A stretch of DNA of 64,000 nucleotides from Escherichia coli (GTDB lineage Bacteria > Pseudomonadota > Gammaproteobacteria > Enterobacterales > Enterobacteriaceae), in the NCBI RefSeq assembly GCF_044324875.1, contig NZ_CP172185.1. One strand, 5' to 3'. The notes under the pieces were generated by a model. The model saw nothing but the letters and a program-made list of their open reading frames with translations, was not told the origin of the DNA and searched no databases. The translations under genes were made by a program, and so were the position numbers. Positions 177 through 46,704 of this stretch are shown piece by piece. How positions within the stretch are numbered: the first letter of the stretch is position 1; each line of letters opens with the position of its first letter.

Positions 177-1355
177 CTAAGCTTGTACTTTTATCTGTGC
201 TGCGGCGTGCTTTGCGCGCTCAATCGCTTCATCAACACTCTCTGCAGTAGCCAGTGCCACCCCCAGACGACGGCTGCCATCAATTTCCGGCTTACCAAAT
301 AAACGAATCTGCAAACCTGCGCCTACGGCATTCTGCACATTATCAAACGTGACATTCTCACTGGTCAGTTGTGGCAGGATAACGGCAGAAGCTGCAGGAC
401 CATACTGACGGATCCCGCCAACCGGAAGTCCGAGAAAGGCTCGCACATGCAGGGCAAACTCCGAGAGATCCTGAGAAATTAACGTCACCATCCCGGTATC
501 ATGTGGGCGAGGGGAGACCTCACTGAAAATCACCTCATCACCACAGACAAACAGCTCGACACCAAACAGACCATAACCGCCCAGTGCCAGCACCACTTTA
601 CGGGCAATCTCCTGCGCACGTTCAAGGGCAAGCGGGCTCATTTGTTGTGGTTGCCAGGATTCACGATAGTCGCCATTTTCCTGGCGATGACCTACCGGTG
701 CACAGAAATGGACGCCATCCACCGCGCTGACGGTTAGCAGGGTAATTTCGAAGTCAAACTTAACGACGCCTTCAACAATTACGCGGCCCGCTCCGGCGCG
801 ACCGCCTTGCTGAGCGTACTCCCATGCTTGAGCAAGTTGCTCTGCAGAACGAATAAACGTCTGCCCTTTACCGGAAGAGCTCATCACCGGTTTAACAATG
901 CAGGGATAGCCGATGTCAGCAACCGCCTCGCGGAAAAGGCTTTCGCTATCGGCAAAACGATAAGTGGAAGTGGGCAGCTGCAGCTCTTCTGCCGCCAGGC
1001 GACGGATACCCTCGCGATTCATCGTTAATTTCGTTGCGCGCGCGCAGGGGACAACATTCAGCCCTTCCTCTTCAAGTTGGATCAGCATATCGGTGGCAAT
1101 AGCTTCGATCTCCGGCACGATATAATGTGGTTTTTCCAGTTCAACCACACGGCGTAATGCATCACCATCAAGCATATTAATGACATGGGAGCGATGCGCG
1201 ACATGCATAGCTGGCGCGTCGGCATAGCGATCGACGGCAATCACCTCTACGCCGAGACGCTGACACTCGATTGCCACTTCTTTACCCAGTTCACCGGAGC
1301 CTAATAACATCACGCGAGTTGCTGCCGGACGCAGCGCAGTGCCTAATAACGTCAT
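177..1355 (-). CDS. purT: Formate-dependent phosphoribosylglycinamide formyltransferase (GAR transformylase T)
   Basis: 392 aa ORF; ATP-grasp protein beginning [27 protein letters not shown]; length and sequence match PurT. Confidence 0.93.
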
Positions 1356-1392
1356 AACGAATATCCCCTGATTAATTCCGCGCGCAGTATAA

Positions 1393-1408
1393 ACGAAAAC
1401 GTTTGCGT
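1393..1408. promoter_or_regulatory. Candidate PurR operator upstream of purT
   Basis: acgaaaacgtttgcgt is a 16 bp palindrome matching the PurR box consensus ACGCAAACGTTTTCGT on the complementary strand; sits 38 bp upstream of the purT start. Confidence 0.6.
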
Positions 1409-1452
1409 GTGTCTTTATTGTTGATGTTGATTTCCCAACCGAGAAGAAATAT

Positions 1453-1472
1453 ACTGTATAAAATCACAGTTA
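1453..1472. promoter_or_regulatory. LexA (SOS) box upstream of yebG
   Basis: TACTGTATAAAATCACAGTT has the CTGT-N8-ACAG core of the LexA consensus; yebG is a known SOS gene. Confidence 0.7.
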
Positions 1473-1488: not shown

Positions 1489-1779
1489 ATGGCGGTTGAA
1501 GTTAAATACGTAGTCATTCGTGAGGGCGAAGAGAAAATGTCGTTTACCAGCAAAAAGGAAGCCGATGCTTATGACAAAATGCTTGATACGGCGGATCTGC
1601 TTGACACCTGGCTGACAAATTCTCCAGTGCAAATGGAAGACGAGCAACGTGAAGCCCTTTCGCTATGGCTGGCAGAACAAAAAGATGTGCTGAGCACCAT
1701 TCTGAAAACCGGCAAATTACCGTCCCCACAGGTCGTCGGTGCTGAATCCGAAGAGGAAGATGCCTCACACGCGGCCTGA
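1489..1779 (+). CDS. yebG: DNA-damage-inducible protein YebG
   Basis: 96 aa ORF directly downstream of the LexA box; sequence and position match YebG. Confidence 0.85.
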   Translation: MAVEVKYVVIREGEEKMSFTSKKEADAYDKMLDTADLLDTWLTNSPVQMEDEQREALSLWLAEQKDVLSTILKTGKLPSPQVVGAESEEEDASHAA

Positions 1780-1797: not shown

Positions 1798-2202
<405 letters not shown>

Positions 2203-3188: not shown

Positions 3189-3351
3189 TTCCGCTCTCAG
3201 GATAGCCTGAAGTTGACTATTTCGGGCTATCCAGAACCGCACAGCCATTTGAACAGGCTGATTTTCTCTGTCTGCATAACATTCGATATCCGCGCCATTA
3301 CCTGTCATCATGTGACTGCTCCCCGCCCTGTCGGGCAAGGCTTCCCACTTC

Positions 3352-4521
3352 TTAAGCCGCAACCGTCTGTGCTACGGATTTATGCTGGCCTCCATGGGCA
3401 GAAACGACGAGTCCCGCCGCTTGTAATTCCAGTATGCCCTTGCGTTTGATGTTGAGCGCCGCGTTGATATCGCGGTCATGTTCAACTCCACACTCTGGAC
3501 ACTGCCAGATGCGCTTATGTAATGGCATCTCCGACATTTTGTGACCGCAGCAGTGGCAGGTTTTCGAACTGGCGAACCATTGATCCAGTTTCACCAGATG
3601 CACACCTTTCTCTGTTGCTTTGTATTCCAGTTTTGTGATGAATCCAGACCATCCAGCATCGCCTATCGCACGAGCCAGATGGTGATTTTTCATCATATTT
3701 GCCGTTTTCAATGTCTCGACAATTACCGCTTGGTTTTCGTCAACAATTGCGCGAGATAACTTGTGCTGGAAATCGGCACGGGCACTGGCTACCCGTTCGT
3801 GAACGGCTGCAAGTTGTATTCTGGCTTTGCGCCTGTTTGCGTTCCCTTTTTTCTTACGGGACAGTGCTTTCTGCTTCCGGCGAAGGTTGCGACTTGCATT
3901 GATTAGGTGGCGGGGACTGGCAATTTTATTGCCGTCCGATTTGATGACAAAATGCGCCAGCCCCATATCCAGCCCTGTCACATTTGATATCAGTGCAGGC
4001 TTTGCCGGCGCTTCCATCCCGTCGTCACAAAGTAACGACGCGTAGTATTTCCCGGTTGCGCTGCGGCTCAACGTGATACTTTTCAGCATTCCCGTAATTT
4101 CACGATGTAAACGCGCTTCAATCGGCAAGATTTTCGGTATTTTTATCGCACCATCAAGGACTTTTATGCCAACACAATGATAGCTCGATTGTCTGCCGTG
4201 TTTACTTTTAAAGGTAGGTTTACCTGCTTTCAGTTTCGGATTGAAAAAGTTAGAAAAAGCCACGTCGAGGTTAATTACCGCCTGCTGCAACGCAATAGAA
4301 TCATATTCTTTAAGCCATCCATACCGGCGGGATTTCTTCGCCACTGCAAGCAGTGGTTTGAGGTCTTTACGCGGGTTTAAATTTACGCGGTGCCGCTGGT
4401 AAGAATGTTTCTTGATATGCAGAGCTTTGTTGTACGCAAAACGCACTGCACCGAACTGGGCGTTGATAAATTCAGCCTGTTCTGGTGTCGGGTAGATGCG
4501 TACTTTTGTTGCTCTTAACAT
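3352..4521 (-). CDS. tnpB: TnpB (IS605 OrfB family, RuvC-like RNA-guided nuclease)
   Basis: 389 aa; N-terminus MLRATKVRIYPTPEQAEFINAQFGAVRFAYNKAL typical of OrfB; putative RuvC triad residues in GLDMGLAHF, IVETLK and HDRDINAALNI; C-terminal zinc-finger cysteines CHCCGHK...CPECG. Confidence 0.85.
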   Translation of the reverse strand: MLRATKVRIYPTPEQAEFINAQFGAVRFAYNKALHIKKHSYQRHRVNLNPRKDLKPLLAVAKKSRRYGWLKEYDSIALQQAVINLDVAFSNFFNPKLKAGKPTFKSKHGRQSSYHCVGIKVLDGAIKIPKILPIEARLHREITGMLKSITLSRSATGKYYASLLCDDGMEAPAKPALISNVTGLDMGLAHFVIKSDGNKIASPRHLINASRNLRRKQKALSRKKKGNANRRKARIQLAAVHERVASARADFQHKLSRAIVDENQAVIVETLKTANMMKNHHLARAIGDAGWSGFITKLEYKATEKGVHLVKLDQWFASSKTCHCCGHKMSEMPLHKRIWQCPECGVEHDRDINAALNIKRKGILELQAAGLVVSAHGGQHKSVAQTVAA

Positions 4522-4577
4522 AATCAGCGCTCATTGATATAATGCTTTTATTTTAACACTTTAGGTAAATATATCAA

Positions 4578-5003
4578 TTGAGTAATCATGATGATTTACT
4601 GGCGGGATTTCTCCGCAAACGACACAGTGTCAGTAAGCTGGTTGTGCACCTTATTTTTACGACAAAGTATCGACGCAAACTATTCGACAGTCAGATGATC
4701 GCTCAGTTGCGTGAGGCTTTTGGCTCCGCTGCGGCAAAGCTTGAATGCGAAATTATTGAGATGGACGGGGAGCCAGACCATGTACACCTGCTGGTTGCCT
4801 ACCCGCCAAAACTGGCGGTCAGTGTGATGGTCAATAATTTAAAATCGGTATCATCACGTTTGCTACGCCAGCAGAACGCGCATTTACGTATGCAGAGTAA
4901 AACGGGGCTTTTGTGGTCGAGATCGTACTTTGTCTGTAGCACCGGAGAGGCAACGATTGAAACGCTCAGAGCCTACGTTCAGAGTCAGTCAACACCTGAT
5001 TGA
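4578..5003 (+). CDS. tnpA: IS200/IS605-family TnpA (HUH Y1 transposase); start codon uncertain
   Basis: 141 aa; motifs HLIFTTKYRRKLF, HUH HVHLL and catalytic-Tyr region SRSYFVCSTG; no in-frame ATG near the 5' end, so the ORF track used TTG at 4578. Confidence 0.75.
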   Translation: MSNHDDLLAGFLRKRHSVSKLVVHLIFTTKYRRKLFDSQMIAQLREAFGSAAAKLECEIIEMDGEPDHVHLLVAYPPKLAVSVMVNNLKSVSSRLLRQQNAHLRMQSKTGLLWSRSYFVCSTGEATIETLRAYVQSQSTPD

Positions 5004-5132
5004 TCTTTAAAGCCCTGCGGGCTTTTCGCCTTATATCCCCGCCCGCATTGGGCGAGGGTTTACGGCGTTTTTCGCTAAGCAATGACTACCCTGTTTCGCT
5101 TGCATCTCCGGTGAGTTTTGCCACCCTTATAA

Positions 5133-7879
<2,747 letters not shown>

Positions 7880-10706: not shown

Positions 10707-10792
10707 ACATTTAAGCTGATGACCACCGCGCTTTTTATTGACCATTTTGCACGCAAACTGGAAAACCTGGCGTCGTCATCTATTCTTAAAGG

Positions 10793-10895
10793 GCAAGGCA
10801 ACTAAGCCTGCATTAATGCCAACTTTTAGCGCACGGCTCTCTCCCAAGAGCCATTTCCCTGGACCGAATACAGGAATCGTGTTCGGTCTCTTTTT
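10793..10895 (+). ncRNA. sdsR: SdsR (RyeB) Hfq-dependent sRNA; antisense RyeA/SraC expected on the opposite strand across the same locus
   Basis: Recognised sequence GCAAGGCAACTAAGCCTGCATTAATGCCAACTTTTAGCGCACGGCTCTCTCCCAAGAGCCATTTCCCTGGACCGAATACAGGAATCGTGTTCGGTCTCTTTTT, ending in a terminator hairpin plus U-tract; located in the yebY-pphA intergenic region as in K-12. Confidence 0.7.
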
Positions 10896-11029
10896 ATCTG
10901 TTAAAAGCCAGAAGCATTCCCTTCGCTGACTTTATAGTCAACCATAACACACACTCTACTGTCTGAGTCCAGCGTTTTTTAACATTCTTGTTAAGATTAT
11001 GTGATCTTTAGCGCGGGAGGAAAATATTG

Positions 11030-13855: not shown

Positions 13856-16489
13856 TTATTTGGGAAGCGCAGTACCCCATTCACGCCACTCTTTCGGTTC
13901 ACTTTCCTGCAACAGGAAGTGCTTGCCTTCCTGGGCTTTCGGTGCCAGTGGCGTACCTGGAGGCGTGGCGAAGGCGATGCCGCCACGGATAAACTGGTTA
14001 AAGGTGCCGGTTTTCACGACGCCGCCCGTCAGACCAAAGTCCAGACTGTAACCCGATGCCAACCAGAAGACGGAATTGTTACGCACCAGGTGTTGATAGC
14101 GTTTACTGATGCGCATCGCAATCATCACGCGATCTGACAATGTCCCCAGCGTCATTCCGGTAACCGTACCGACTTCCAGACCACGGAACAGCACAGGCGT
14201 ACCGATGCCTAACGAACCGGCTTCCGGCGCTTCAACAATAATGCTTAAGCCATCCAGGTAACGCGAATCAGTTATGGTGGCCTCTTGTAATTCAAAGTCG
14301 CGGCGAGGATTGCCCCGGCCTGGTTCGACGTTGATATACGGCTGGAGGATAGTATCAAGATGCTCAACGCCAGCTGCCGAAATTTGCGGTGTGACCACTG
14401 AGAAGCGTGTACCACCGCGTGCAAAGGTCTGGACATATTCCGGGTAAAGTACCGCCTTTGCCTGTACTTCATTGCGCGCGGTAATCAGATCCAGCGTCTG
14501 GATTTGCCCGATATCAATACCGAGATAGCGAATTGGCATCCCGACCGCCAGTTTTCCGGCATCGAAAGCGTGAAGCGTAATTTGCCCTCCAACCGCACGG
14601 GCCGCTGTTTCGGAAGCATACAGAATACGCTTGTCGCCTTTACGCTGACTGGCGCTGGCACCGCTGAGGTTATCGAAGCTAATAGCCCCCTTTAATGCTC
14701 TGGAGAGCGGAGATGCCTGTACGGTTAGGCCGCTGCCATTCAGCTGAACTTTCGCCCCACCTTCTGCCCAGAACACGCTGTTGCTGGTCAGAAGGTTGCG
14801 ATACTCCGGCTTAATATGCAGATCGATATCAAACGCGTTAGCTCGCGGACGCACAGTAATAACTTCACCAACTTCAAATTTACGGTACAGCACTACCGAT
14901 CCTGCCTGCACATCCGGCAGCGTCTCTGCACTCAAACTCACGGTTGTGGTGGGTAAATCGCTAAGGCTGTTCTCCAGCGCTTTTTCCAGATTGGCATACA
15001 GTGGATAGCTGGCTTTCATCTCGCCTTTATCGCCTGGCAGAATACGTATCCCGCCGTTAATCCATTCTGAGGCGCTGGCACCGAGAAACTCAACGCCATC
15101 CAGCCCCACCTTCACGTCGACACGGCTGTTGACGACAAATTTGCTATCGCCTTTTACCAGTTCGCGATGCTGAGGCTCGATGGCGACGGTAAAGGTGACG
15201 CCTTTGCTGGTGAGTTTACGATCAATAACCTGGCCTACCTGCACGCCGTGAAGAATGAGCGGCTGACCAGCATCAATGCCGTAACTTTCCGGCGCGGTCA
15301 GGGTCAGCGTCAGAACATCCGGCTCATGGAGCAGGGCTTTTTCACCTGGCACAACAATAAACTCTTTACGTGGCTCGCCATCGCCGGGCACCAACTCAAA
15401 GGTTTTTCCGGTCAGCAGGGCACTGAGATTGGCATCGCTAAGGGATAATTTCGGGTTGCGTAATTCGATGCGGGTATTTTCACGAAGCAGGGTGACGACG
15501 CTGGGATCAACGGTCATTTCCCCAGTGACTTTACCACCAGGATTTAAATCCAGTTTAGTCAGCTGTCCGACTTCCAGCCCCTGATACATTAACGGCGTCG
15601 AGTCGGCGGTTAATCCGGCCCCACTCGGCAGTTCCAGTTTTATTATTACGCCACGCTGGCTGTGGGCGAGATCTTCATACAGACCAAAGGTATCTTCCGC
15701 CTCGGCAGGTTTCGACTCTTCAGGTGAATCGAAGGCAATCGCACCGTTAACCAGTGCCGCCAGACTTTCCAGTTTCACCTTCGCGCCACTGATACTGACG
15801 TTGGCATCAACGCCAGAAACGTTCCAGAAACGGCTACCTTTTTTCACCAGGTCGGTAAAACGCCGCTCGATCAGGACATCAATCACCACGCCTTGCTTGT
15901 TGGGATTGATGGCATAGTCGTAGACTTTTCCGACCGGGATCTTGCGGAAATAGACCAATGAACCGCTGTTCAGCGAACCGAGATCGGGGGCTTGCAGGTG
16001 GATCATCAGATCGCCGTTATCCAGCCGATACTTCGGTTGGGTATCGAGTGCGACAAAGTGATCCTGCTCCTTACCTTTACCTGGCATCATGCCGATATAG
16101 TTACCACCGACGAGGGCGTCCAGTCCGGAGACACCTGCCAACGAGGCCTTTGGCGTCACCAGCCAGAACTGTGTCTCTTCGCGCAGCGCATCTTTCATAT
16201 CGGACTTGATGCTGACCTTGACTTCAATCTTACGAAGATCGTCGCTCAGGCTGATATCCTGCACAGTTCCGACTTCAACGCCCTGATAACGAACAGGGGT
16301 GCGGCCCGGGACAATGCCATCCGCCGACATAAAGTCGATGGTGACGGTATTACCCCGGTCCTGATAACTATCCCAAATCAGCCAACCGGCAATCATTAGC
16401 GCGATGAACGGCAGCAGCCAGAAAGGTGAGATACGGCGTTTATTTTTAATCTGCGCTTCAGTCGTCGAAGCGGGCGTTTCCTGACTCAT
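13856..16489 (-). CDS. letB: Lipophilic envelope-spanning tunnel protein LetB (multi-MCE domain)
   Basis: 877 aa from [39 protein letters not shown]; single N-terminal TM segment followed by repeated MCE domains. Confidence 0.9.
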
Positions 16490-22352: not shown

Positions 22353-23068
22353 TGCACAGAAAACCCCCAGCTAGGCTGGGGGTTCCGGAAAGCTTTCAGC
22401 TTTGAGCCAGTTATTAAAACCCCTTTTGATTTGTTAAAACACCTTGCGGTCTGGCAACTGCAAGTGTCAAACAAGTGTCAAACAAGAAATCAAAAGGGGG
22501 TCCCAATGGGGAACGAAAAGAGCTTAGCGCACACCCGATGGAACTGTAAATATCACATAGTATTTGCGCCAAAATACCGAAGACAGGTGTTCTACAGAGA
22601 GAAGCGTAGAGCAATAGGCTGTATTTTGAGAAAGCTGTGTGAGTGGAAAAGTGTACGGATTCTGGAAGCTGAATGCTGTGCAGATCATATCCATATGCTT
22701 GTGGAGATCCCGCCCAAAATGAGCGTATCAGGCTTTATGGGATATCTGAAAGGGAAAAGCAGTCTGATGCTTTACGAGCAGTTTGGTGATTTGAAATTCA
22801 AATACAGGAACAGGGAGTTCTGGTGCAGAGGGTATTACGTCGATACGGTGGGTAAGAACACGGCGAAGATACAGGATTACATAAAGCACCAGCTTGAAGA
22901 GGATAAAATGGGAGAGCAGTTATCGATTCCCTATCCGGGCAGCCCGTTTACGGGCCGTAAGTAACGAAGTTGGATGCAAATGTCAGATCGTGTGCGCCTG
23001 TTAGGGCGCGGCTGGTAAGAGAGCCTTATAGGCGCATTTGAAAAACCTCCGGCTATGCCGGAGGATAT
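22353..23068 (+). mobile_element. IS200-like insertion sequence (about 0.7 kb; boundaries approximate)
   Basis: Contains an IS200-type tnpA; 5' region has a perfect hairpin (cccccagc-tagg-gctggggg, 22364-22382) and a long stem pairing ccccttttgatttgtt with aacaagaaatcaaaaggggg that would sequester the RBS; inserted between the htpX terminator and the yebQ stop. Confidence 0.6.
22506..22964 (+). CDS. tnpA: IS200 TnpA (HUH Y1 transposase)
   Basis: 152 aa from MGNEKSLAHTRWNCKYHIVFAPKYRRQVFY; HUH motif DHIHMLVEIPPK; near-identical to Salmonella IS200 TnpA as I recall it. Confidence 0.88.
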   Translation: MGNEKSLAHTRWNCKYHIVFAPKYRRQVFYREKRRAIGCILRKLCEWKSVRILEAECCADHIHMLVEIPPKMSVSGFMGYLKGKSSLMLYEQFGDLKFKYRNREFWCRGYYVDTVGKNTAKIQDYIKHQLEEDKMGEQLSIPYPGSPFTGRK

Positions 23069-26460: not shown

Positions 26461-27129
26461 TCCTTCCTCAATCTTGAGTAACCCCGTCGTTGAAGGGTTA
26501 CTCAATTCATCCTGATTATACGCACTGTCATGGTGCAACTGCTTCAAATTAAAACTCTGGTCTGACTTCAAATAATTATCATATTATTTATTTGCGTAAC
26601 GGGATATCAGAAAAAGATATTTAGCCCATTAATTTATTAGGATGTTTACATCGGATTTGTGATTAAGCGTGGTATTATTTATTAGCGAAACGTTTCTCTC
26701 TTGATTTTTTTGCGCATTTATCAATTTTTCTTATTTTAAATTTACAATACCTTTGGCGATTGACTTCTCTTTGGGGTGATCTATAGCCGTTAACTGACTG
26801 TTTTATGAGAAAAAGTGATATAACTTTTTATTCATTGCATAGCAGAAAATGTGATATTGCACGCACTATGTAATAACTTCTCCCACTGGCCTGGAACAAC
26901 TGAACTTATTGAACTATGTTAGAAAATACGTCAGTTTAAGTATCTGCCTGAACTGGCAAGGTTAAGCACAATGATATATCGGCGCGTATTCCGTTGCATA
27001 AGTGTGCAAAAAAAGTGGAAGACGTATCGAGATTTGTGCGTCTGATCGAGACATGTTTAAAAATGGCTTGCCATAATTAACGTTGTATGTGATAACAGAT
27101 TTCGGGTTAAACGAGGTACAGTTCTGTTT

Positions 27130-27273
27130 ATGTGTGGCATTTTCAGTAAAGAAGTCCTGAGTAAACACGTTGACGTTGAATACCGCTTCTCTGCCGAGCC
27201 TTATATTGGTGCCTCATGCAGTAATGTGTCAGTTTTATCTATGTTATGCCTGCGGGCGAAGAAAACAATCTAA
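27130..27273 (+). CDS. yobF: Small protein YobF (47 aa; missed by the ORF track)
   Basis: ATG at 27130; translation [47 protein letters not shown]; ends 12 bp before cspC. Confidence 0.75.
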
Positions 27274-27285
27274 GGAATTTTTCAA

Positions 27286-27495
27286 ATGGCAAAGATTAAA
27301 GGTCAGGTTAAGTGGTTCAACGAGTCTAAAGGTTTTGGCTTCATTACTCCGGCTGATGGCAGCAAAGACGTGTTCGTACACTTCTCTGCTATCCAGGGTA
27401 ATGGCTTCAAAACTCTGGCTGAAGGTCAGAACGTTGAGTTCGAAATTCAGGACGGTCAGAAAGGTCCGGCAGCTGTTAACGTAACAGCTATCTGA
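27286..27495 (+). CDS. cspC: Cold-shock-domain protein CspC
   Basis: 69 aa [40 protein letters not shown]1/RNP2 motifs. Confidence 0.93.
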
Positions 27496-27660
27496 TCGAA
27501 TCCACTGATCTGAAGTGTGAATACGCTTCAATCTCGCTATAAAGCCTCGTCGAATGCGAGGCTTTTTACTTTGCTTTATCTTCGCTCCAGTCGTTCGGAT
27601 ATTTGCCCGCCGCGTGATTCGCGTTACACTTGCGGCCTTTAGTGTCCTGCCGGAGTTGTC

Positions 27661-44973: not shown

Positions 44974-46659
44974 TTGAAGAAGGTTTGGCTTAACCGTTAT
45001 CCCGCGGACGTTCCGACGGAGATCAACCCTGACCGTTATCAATCTCTGGTAGATATGTTTGAGCAGTCGGTCGCGCGCTACGCCGATCAGCCTGCGTTTG
45101 TGAATATGGGGGAGGTGATGACCTTCCGCAAGCTGGAAGAACGCAGTCGCGCGTTTGCCGCTTATTTGCAACAAGGGTTGGGGCTGAAGAAAGGCGATCG
45201 CGTTGCGTTGATGATGCCTAATTTATTGCAATATCCGGTGGCGCTGTTTGGCATTTTGCGTGCCGGGATGATTGTCGTAAACGTTAACCCGTTGTATACC
45301 CCGCGTGAACTTGAGCATCAGCTTAACGATAGCGGCGCATCGGCGATTGTTATCGTGTCTAACTTTGCCCACACTCTGGAAAAAGTGGTTGATAAAACCG
45401 CCGTTCAGCACGTAATTCTGACCCGTATGGGCGATCAGCTATCTACGGCAAAAGGCACGGTAGTCAATTTCGTTGTTAAATACATCAAGCGTCTGGTGCC
45501 GAAATACCATCTGCCAGATGCCATTTCATTTCGTAGCGCCCTGCACAACGGCTACCGGATGCAGTACGTCAAACCCGAACTGGTGCCGGAAGATTTAGCT
45601 TTCCTGCAATACACCGGCGGCACCACAGGTGTGGCGAAAGGCGCGATGCTGACTCACCGCAATATGCTGGCGAACCTGGAACAGGTTAACGCGACCTATG
45701 GTCCGCTGTTGCATCCGGGCAAAGAGCTGGTGGTGACGGCGCTGCCGCTGTATCACATTTTTGCACTGACCATTAACTGCCTGCTGTTTATCGAACTGGG
45801 TGGGCAGAACCTGCTTATCACTAACCCGCGCGATATTCCAGGGTTGGTAAAAGAGTTAGCGAAATATCCGTTTACCGCTATCACTGGCGTTAACACCTTG
45901 TTCAATGCGTTGCTGAACAATAAAGAGTTCCAGCAGCTGGATTTCTCCAGTCTGCATCTTTCCGCAGGCGGAGGGATGCCTGTTCAGCAAGTGGTGGCAG
46001 AACGTTGGGTGAAACTGACTGGACAGTATCTGCTGGAAGGTTATGGCCTGACCGAGTGTGCGCCGCTGGTCAGCGTTAACCCGTATGATATTGATTATCA
46101 TAGTGGTAGCATCGGTTTGCCGGTGCCGTCGACGGAAGCCAAACTGGTGGATGACGACGACAACGAAGTACCACCGGGTCAACCGGGTGAGCTTTGTGTC
46201 AAAGGACCGCAGGTGATGCTGGGTTACTGGCAGCGTCCGGATGCTACCGATGAGATCATCAAAAATGGCTGGTTACACACCGGCGACATCGCGGTGATGG
46301 ATGAAGAAGGATTCCTGCGCATTGTCGATCGTAAAAAAGACATGATTCTGGTTTCCGGTTTTAACGTCTATCCCAACGAGATTGAAGATGTCGTCATGCA
46401 GCATCCTGGAGTACAGGAAGTCGCGGCTGTTGGCGTACCTTCCGGCTCCAGTGGTGAAGCGGTGAAAATCTTCGTAGTGAAAAAAGATCCATCGCTTACC
46501 GAAGAGTCACTGGTGACTTTTTGCCGCCGTCAGCTCACGGGCTACAAAGTACCGAAGCTGGTGGAGTTTCGTGATGAGTTACCGAAATCTAACGTCGGAA
46601 AAATTTTGCGACGAGAATTACGTGACGAAGCGCGCGGCAAAGTGGACAATAAAGCCTGA
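44974..46659 (+). CDS. fadD: Long-chain fatty acyl-CoA synthetase
   Basis: 561 aa from a TTG start ([25 protein letters not shown]); AMP-binding motif [11 protein letters not shown]. Confidence 0.92.
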
Positions 46660-46678
46660 GCGTTAAGTCAGTCGTCAG

Positions 46679-46704
46679 ACGCCGGTTAATCCGGCGTTTT
46701 TTTT
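46679..46704 (+). terminator. Intrinsic terminator after fadD
   Basis: cgccgg-ttaat-ccggcg followed by tttttttt. Confidence 0.55.

Follow-up and report, generated by a model that had tools for sequence, protein, structure and literature searches.

PurR and LexA operators on two back-to-back promoters in the purT-yebG intergenic region of Escherichia coli

The SOS box of yebG was reportedly described by Lomba et al. in 1997. The closest described system to the locus analysed here is the yebG-purT region of E. coli K-12 MG1655, in which experiments are available for both of the divergent genes. On the purT side, ChIP-chip, published together with expression data, located a PurR peak at purT (enrichment 2.00 with adenine versus 1.02), placed purT among the genes that PurR represses directly and located the PurR motifs at -10/-35 elements (Cho et al. 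2011, PMC3159470). Both promoters of the region, which is described as being of 'approximately 120 bp', were then dissected by Sort-Seq, with a summary in Fig. 5E (Belliveau et al. 2018, PNAS, PMC6003448). That paper reports that the purT promoter carries a repressor site between its -35 and -10 elements that is present only with adenine, pulls down PurR with hypoxanthine and is gone in a purR deletion strain; on the other side, yebG was found to have sites for LexA and for RNA polymerase and to be induced by mitomycin C. In keeping with SOS control, a 4.4-fold induction of yebG by AZT and a 9.7-fold lexA dependence have been measured (PMC11228462). UV induction and LexA-dependent yebF expression have been reported as well, and RT-qPCR in lexA mutants placed yebF under full and yebE under partial LexA control (PMC3009722). 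Expression of purT also depends on SspA (PMC11228462), so that a picture with two repressors is not the whole of the regulation. A literature search for other yebG regulators (H-NS, cAMP) gave nothing specific.

We compared with this system the corresponding locus of the window, by which we mean the whole stretch of E. coli DNA that was analysed (64,000 nucleotides). The genes stand in the order eda(kdgA)-purT-yebG-yebF-yebE, according to the RefSeq annotation of E. coli strain MEI003; an 801-bp stretch around the purT-yebG region is 100% identical in that strain, where RefSeq annotates purT, and 5,425 of the 5,426 complete E. coli genomes have it with an identity of at least 95%. An earlier note on this DNA had named purT and yebG as the divergent flanking genes, which is borne out by the open reading frames, the NCBIfam equivalogs and RefSeq (Table 1); the intergenic length of 130 bp that it gave has to be replaced by the measured 133 bp. 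The locus of K-12 MG1655 is identical in gene order, operators, hexamers and 133-bp length: neither box and none of the four promoter hexamers shows a difference, and the intergenic region departs from the window by three single bases only, all in non-conserved linker (positions 1421, 1435 and 1443). The K-12 experiments therefore apply directly to the window. A scan for terminator-like sites found none within 1100-1900, and an Rfam scan found no known RNA element in the purT-yebG intergenic region. Elsewhere in the window, Rfam matches at the gathering threshold lie at 10755-10899, 22362-22496, 27110-27570 and 46618-46703; the RNAs there are the overlapping antisense pair SraC/RyeA and SdsR/RyeB, STnc490, a cspA-type thermoregulator leader and sroD. 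The window also differs from K-12 MG1655 by a downstream insertion that is unrelated to the control region, an IS200/IS605-family element annotated as ISEc46 at 3312-5159, between yebE and ptrB. The yebE-ISEc46 junction is found in only 400 of the 5,426 complete E. coli genomes, the match ending at about 3311 elsewhere.

Table 1. Coordinates of the features in the window, with the evidence for each and its identity to the window across the orthologous regions
Feature	Position	Strand	Evidence and remarks	Identity to window
purT CDS	177..1355	-	392-aa ORF; formate-dependent GAR transformylase; NCBIfam equivalog NF006766 (656 bits), TIGR01142 purT (648 bits); PurR-repressed gene	
purT-yebG intergenic region	1356-1488	divergent	133 bp	
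purT promoter -10, TATACT	1386..1391	-	promoter scan AAGACA-18-TATACT	96% (mean, 88 distinct orthologous intergenic regions)
PurR operator (PUR box), ACGAAAACGTTTGCGT	1393..1408	no strand	fills the purT -35/-10 spacer; consensus, PWM, ChIP-chip table, Sort-Seq, conservation	95% (four free positions)
purT promoter -35, AAGACA	1410..1415	-	promoter scan; AAGACA in 52/89 orthologous regions	71%
Variable linker between the back-to-back -35 hexamers	1416..1426	no strand	11 bp; no conserved element	37% (mean)
yebG promoter -35, TTGATT	1427..1432	+	promoter scan TTGATT-17-TATACT	66%
yebG spacer	1433-1449			34%
yebG promoter -10, TATACT	1450..1455	+	promoter scan; overlaps the left arm of the LexA box; TATACT in 69/89 species	98% (positions 1450-1451)
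LexA operator (SOS box), TACTGTATAAAATCACAGTT	1452..1471	no strand	covers the yebG -10 and predicted start; ends 17 bp before the ATG	71% (twelve free positions)
Rest of the region overall				47%
yebG CDS	1489..1779	+	96-aa ORF; DNA damage-inducible protein YebG; NCBIfam equivalog NF007475 (206 bits); RefSeq annotation; LexA-repressed gene	
yebF, 3' of yebG	1846..2202	+	NCBIfam YebF match; RefSeq coordinates; LexA control reported as common with yebG	
RNA-guided endonuclease TnpB/InsQ ORF	3352-4521	-	within ISEc46	
tnpA	about 4578-5003	+	within ISEc46	

The PurR box has the form of a PUR box, a 16-bp imperfect palindrome (ACGCAAACGTTTGCGT / ACGNAAACGTTTGCNT) with a central CG. It shows one mismatch to the palindromic consensus ACGCAAACGTTTGCGT and is the sole match with at most three mismatches in the 64-kb window. 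Such a consensus search is weak by itself: chance alone should give 0.51 matches per window, and at least one was present in 44 of 100 shuffled windows; we therefore used leave-one-out position weight matrices (PWMs) instead. The PurR matrix was built from the 28 motifs of the published ChIP-chip table (PMC3159470), with the purT site itself left out. The box scores 23.5 bits out of a possible 24.8, which ranks it first of the 28 published sites, above all 27 others, and the next-best score in the window is 11.0 bits. The best scores of dinucleotide-shuffled windows averaged 14.8 ± 2.2 bits with a highest value of 22.1, so that none of 200 shuffles reached the score of the box. In addition, the purT motif listed in the ChIP-chip table (PMC3159470) is the identical 16-mer. 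Set in the promoter of a gene of nucleotide metabolism, the box overlaps the core elements, since the 18 nt that separate AAGACA from TATACT upstream of purT are occupied by it. No other published PurR site is as close to consensus as that of purT, a small addition made by this analysis.

The LexA box likewise has the form of its class in E. coli, a 20-bp palindrome of the TACTGT(AT)4ACAGTA type with an exact CTGT-N8-ACAG core: TACTGT-N8-ACAGT is matched exactly at 1452-1470 and the symmetric 20-mer extends to 1471. Scored with a matrix of 18 boxes (PMC3009722) from which the yebG site itself was left out, it reaches 20.4 bits, while the next-best score in the window is 12.5 bits. The shuffled windows gave maxima of 11.8 ± 2.2 bits, the highest being 20.0, and none of 200 reached the score of the box. 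The 20-mer is the published yebG SOS box (PMC3009722, Table 4), for which a heterology index of 6.3 is given on a published scale from 1.8 to 13 (PMC11228462). Two weak LexA-like 20-mers occur elsewhere in the window, at 2535-2554, where the start of yebE is overlapped, and at 15536-15555; they score 12.3 and 12.5 bits. We rejected both as LexA sites: their scores are no better than the typical best of a shuffled window (mean 11.8), and they are therefore probably due to chance.

These results bear directly on what the earlier note had read in the sequence. It had pointed to a consensus-like PurR palindrome at 1393-1408, which holds at 23.5 bits, above every shuffle and identical to the published motif, and to a strong LexA box at 1453-1472, for which the box itself stands at 20.4 bits while the coordinates were one base off (1452-1471). 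The word 'strong' is fair, yet the box is of middle rank, 13th of the 18 published boxes, as its heterology index also indicates. It had proposed matrix scans as a check, and neither operator turned out to be a low-scoring match, the PurR box having the top score of its 28 sites and the LexA box lying above all 200 shuffles. The distance of 45 bp between the boxes follows from the note's own coordinates; the corrected gap is 43 bp (1409-1451), or 61 bp from centre to centre. Finally, the assignment of the two boxes to PurR and LexA, with two regulons meeting in one short divergent region, is supported by the published tables and by the K-12 Sort-Seq data.

A consensus scan of 1100-1900 revealed exactly two sigma-70-like promoters, one per gene. 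Their -35 hexamers stand back to back, 11 bp apart, and therefore each operator overlaps its own core promoter only. The predicted yebG start has the PurR box about 54-69 bp upstream of it, and that of purT has the LexA box about 73-92 bp upstream. The LexA box begins inside the yebG -10 hexamer, crosses the predicted start site and stops 17 bp short of the yebG ATG. Other -10-like hexamers can be seen by eye a few bases downstream of the yebG TATACT and likewise inside the LexA box, and the Sort-Seq paper places the yebG RNA polymerase site 9 bp downstream of a 1997 computational annotation (PMC6003448). Since these alternative hexamers are covered by the LexA box, the mechanism is unchanged whichever -10 holds. 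Conservation would favour TATACT at 1450-1455, as positions 1450-1451 are outside the LexA 20-mer yet 98% conserved, which fits a role in the -10 element.

The conservation of this arrangement was examined by scanning one genome per species for CTGT-N8-ACAG followed, after 30-60 nt, by CG-N-AAACGTTT-N-CG. The scan returned 105 matches, of which 88 are flanked by purT and yebG, 3 others reach the end of the fetched locus and are truncated there, and 14 are in unrelated taxa; about 17 matches were estimated to arise by chance (roughly 6 x 10^11 positions x 31 gap lengths / 4^20). Both boxes are thus held between purT and yebG in 88 other species genomes, with YebG identities to the window going down to 54%. 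These genomes belong to 17 enterobacterial genera (Escherichia, Salmonella, Citrobacter, Klebsiella, Raoultella, Enterobacter, Kosakonia, Phytobacter, Intestinirhabdus, Pseudescherichia, Superficieibacter, Siccibacter, Cedecea, Buttiauxella, Pantoea, Mixta and Erwinia). As the pattern requires both box cores, this sample shows the breadth of the arrangement and not its frequency or the share of species lacking the boxes. For the same reason, only the positions that the pattern leaves free were scored in the boxes, as a way of dealing with the ascertainment bias of the fixed cores (Table 1). Among the Escherichia matches of the scan, PurT is 85-98% identical to that of the window; the exact LexA 20-mer of the window was seen in the window alone, every Escherichia match that was read (E. 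albertii, L014, which is labelled E. coli, and L046) being different. The representative genome of E. coli seems to be missing from the one-per-species collection.

On the purT side, the whole PurR 16-mer is identical in 72 of the 89 orthologous regions, a set picked on the box core, and the -10 element, at a fixed distance from the box, reads TATACT in 69 and TATAAT in 19 of them; the -35 element has diverged in the Erwinia/Pantoea/Buttiauxella group. On the yebG side, a hexamer starting with TTG at a spacing of 17 nt is the commonest -35 (TTGATT in 28 and TTGAGT in 16, plus other TTG variants among the hexamers listed), and the overlap of the LexA box with a TATACT -10 is kept in 69 of 89 species. 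The LexA box itself takes 34 different 20-mer forms, yet all 89 orthologous boxes score between 16.9 and 29.0 bits (median 24.9), and the free LexA positions contribute +10.4 bits (median), the null being -6.8 ± 5.3. The inner region of the box is closer to consensus in most other genera, for instance TACTGTATAAAAATACAGTA. At about 20.4 bits against the median of its orthologues, the LexA box in front of E. coli yebG is weaker than most of them, which is another small addition made by this analysis. An alignment with one sequence per genus shows two conserved islands, GCAGTATAAACGAAAACGTTTGCGT and TATACTGTATAAA..ACAGT, and a length variation between genera that resides mainly in the linker between the islands and in the purT leader; the gap between the PurR and LexA boxes ranges from 40 to 53 bp across species and is usually of 42-45 bp. 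This linker, variable both in sequence and in length, argues for two independent modules.

Within E. coli, a short-query megablast of each operator module matched 3,853 and 4,462 of the 5,426 genomes. We rejected the reading of the unmatched genomes as having lost a box: the shortfall is due in part to the requirement for an exact word of 28 bases, and the aligned strains keep the cores intact. The differences between aligned strains cluster in 1408-1446. A T/C polymorphism at 1408, the outermost position of the PurR box, is common; 16 of 89 species share it, and so do true PurR sites, that of purHD for example, and it probably explains the approximately 1,570 genomes without an exact 28-mer across the PurR box. 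Inside the LexA box, one strain among those aligned, HB6, carries an A to G change at 1461.

Taken together, the region very probably consists of two back-to-back sigma-70 promoters with one repressor site each, which act independently by blocking RNA polymerase. The sequences, scores, promoter geometry and conservation are direct observations, and for binding and regulation we rely on the published K-12 experiments, made with identical boxes; where exactly transcription starts, and that the two modules are independent, we infer. According to this model, purT is transcribed leftward from AAGACA (1415-1410) and TATACT (1391-1386), with the PurR operator in the spacer. In the presence of abundant purines, PurR carrying hypoxanthine or guanine sits on the box and keeps RNA polymerase off purT, a case of simple repression. 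In the other direction, yebG and then yebF are transcribed rightward from TTGATT (1427-1432) and TATACT (1450-1455), and a LexA dimer on the 20-bp box over the -10 and the start represses yebG(-yebF). DNA damage then activates RecA, leading LexA to cleave itself and yebG to be induced. We found no evidence contradicting the explanation by two independent modules and no indication of a joint action of PurR and LexA, each repressor being on its own promoter.

The least probable alternative is that one of the boxes, or both, would match a consensus by chance only and play no part in regulation. The lack of significance of the three-mismatch PurR search taken alone would be compatible with it, but both PWM scores exceed those of all 200 shuffled windows, both boxes sit on core promoter elements, their unfixed positions are conserved across 17 genera, and binding and genetic evidence has been published on the identical K-12 sequence. 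Taken with the conservation and the published experiments, the PWM controls exclude a chance origin of the boxes, and we give this possibility a negligible weight.

A coupling of the two operators, such that PurR modulates yebG or LexA modulates purT through DNA bending, contacts of the alpha subunit or supercoiling by divergent transcription, also appears improbable, though somewhat less remote than chance; it would connect the SOS response with the supply of purines. In its favour are the adjacency of purT and yebG with both boxes in at least 88 species, at a gap that is usually of 42-45 bp, and the tendency of purine genes to be lowered in expression after an inhibition of replication, upon which yebG rises (PMC11228462); the down-regulation is reported there for the purine biosynthesis genes collectively and not specifically for purT, and its mechanism is left unexplained. 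The linker, however, is the least conserved part of the region (34-37% identity), with indels and gaps from 40 to 53 bp, which speaks against a fixed phase or contact, and the narrow range of spacings is explained by two promoters of fixed geometry standing back to back. Moreover, the Sort-Seq paper treats the features as directional, each tied to a single promoter, and its model of purT is one of simple repression with PurR alone (PMC6003448), and yebG has no occurrence in the PurR regulon paper (PMC3159470). We also hold it for very doubtful that the side-by-side placement of purT and yebG is not neutral and couples the two responses, for example through SOS-induced divergent transcription or repressor bending that changes the output of purT. 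If true, such a coupling would tie a formate-dependent step of purine synthesis to the repair of DNA damage across the Enterobacterales.

The reading that we prefer, two independent modules, makes the region a clean textbook case of two simple-repression promoters within 133 bp, which already serves as a model in quantitative promoter dissection. The purT-yebG PurR/LexA arrangement is already published and ordinary, and little is gained for this locus beyond the confirmation of its annotation. What is added is the range of the paired arrangement: at least 88 further species genomes, from 17 genera of enterobacteria, have it too, their two conserved islands being separated by a free linker.

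A LexA box in a short divergent SOS intergenic region is also found between uvrA and ssb. In that system, the two divergent genes are credited with a single common LexA box, whereas the LexA box between purT and yebG serves yebG only and the other promoter has a different repressor; uvrA and ssb are listed with the same heterology index of 6.2 (PMC11228462). On the purine side, the other PurR-repressed pur promoters (for example cvpA-purF, purHD and purMN) likewise have one PUR box each, 16 bp long and with CG at its centre, which overlaps the core promoter and imposes a corepressor-dependent steric block. The purT promoter differs from them in that its box is the nearest to the PWM optimum among the 28 listed sites and in that an SOS gene lies on the other side of its intergenic region. 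On the SOS side, the yebG orthologue of Salmonella enterica likewise has one SOS box at 17 bp from the ATG, with a heterology index of 7.03 and a 41-fold induction by damage (PMC8072944), although the inner sequence of that box differs from that of the E. coli window. A natural single-base variant of the Salmonella box changes the fraction of undamaged cells that express yebG (PMC8072944), and E. coli strains likewise show occasional variants of the inner box, such as the one at 1461 in HB6.
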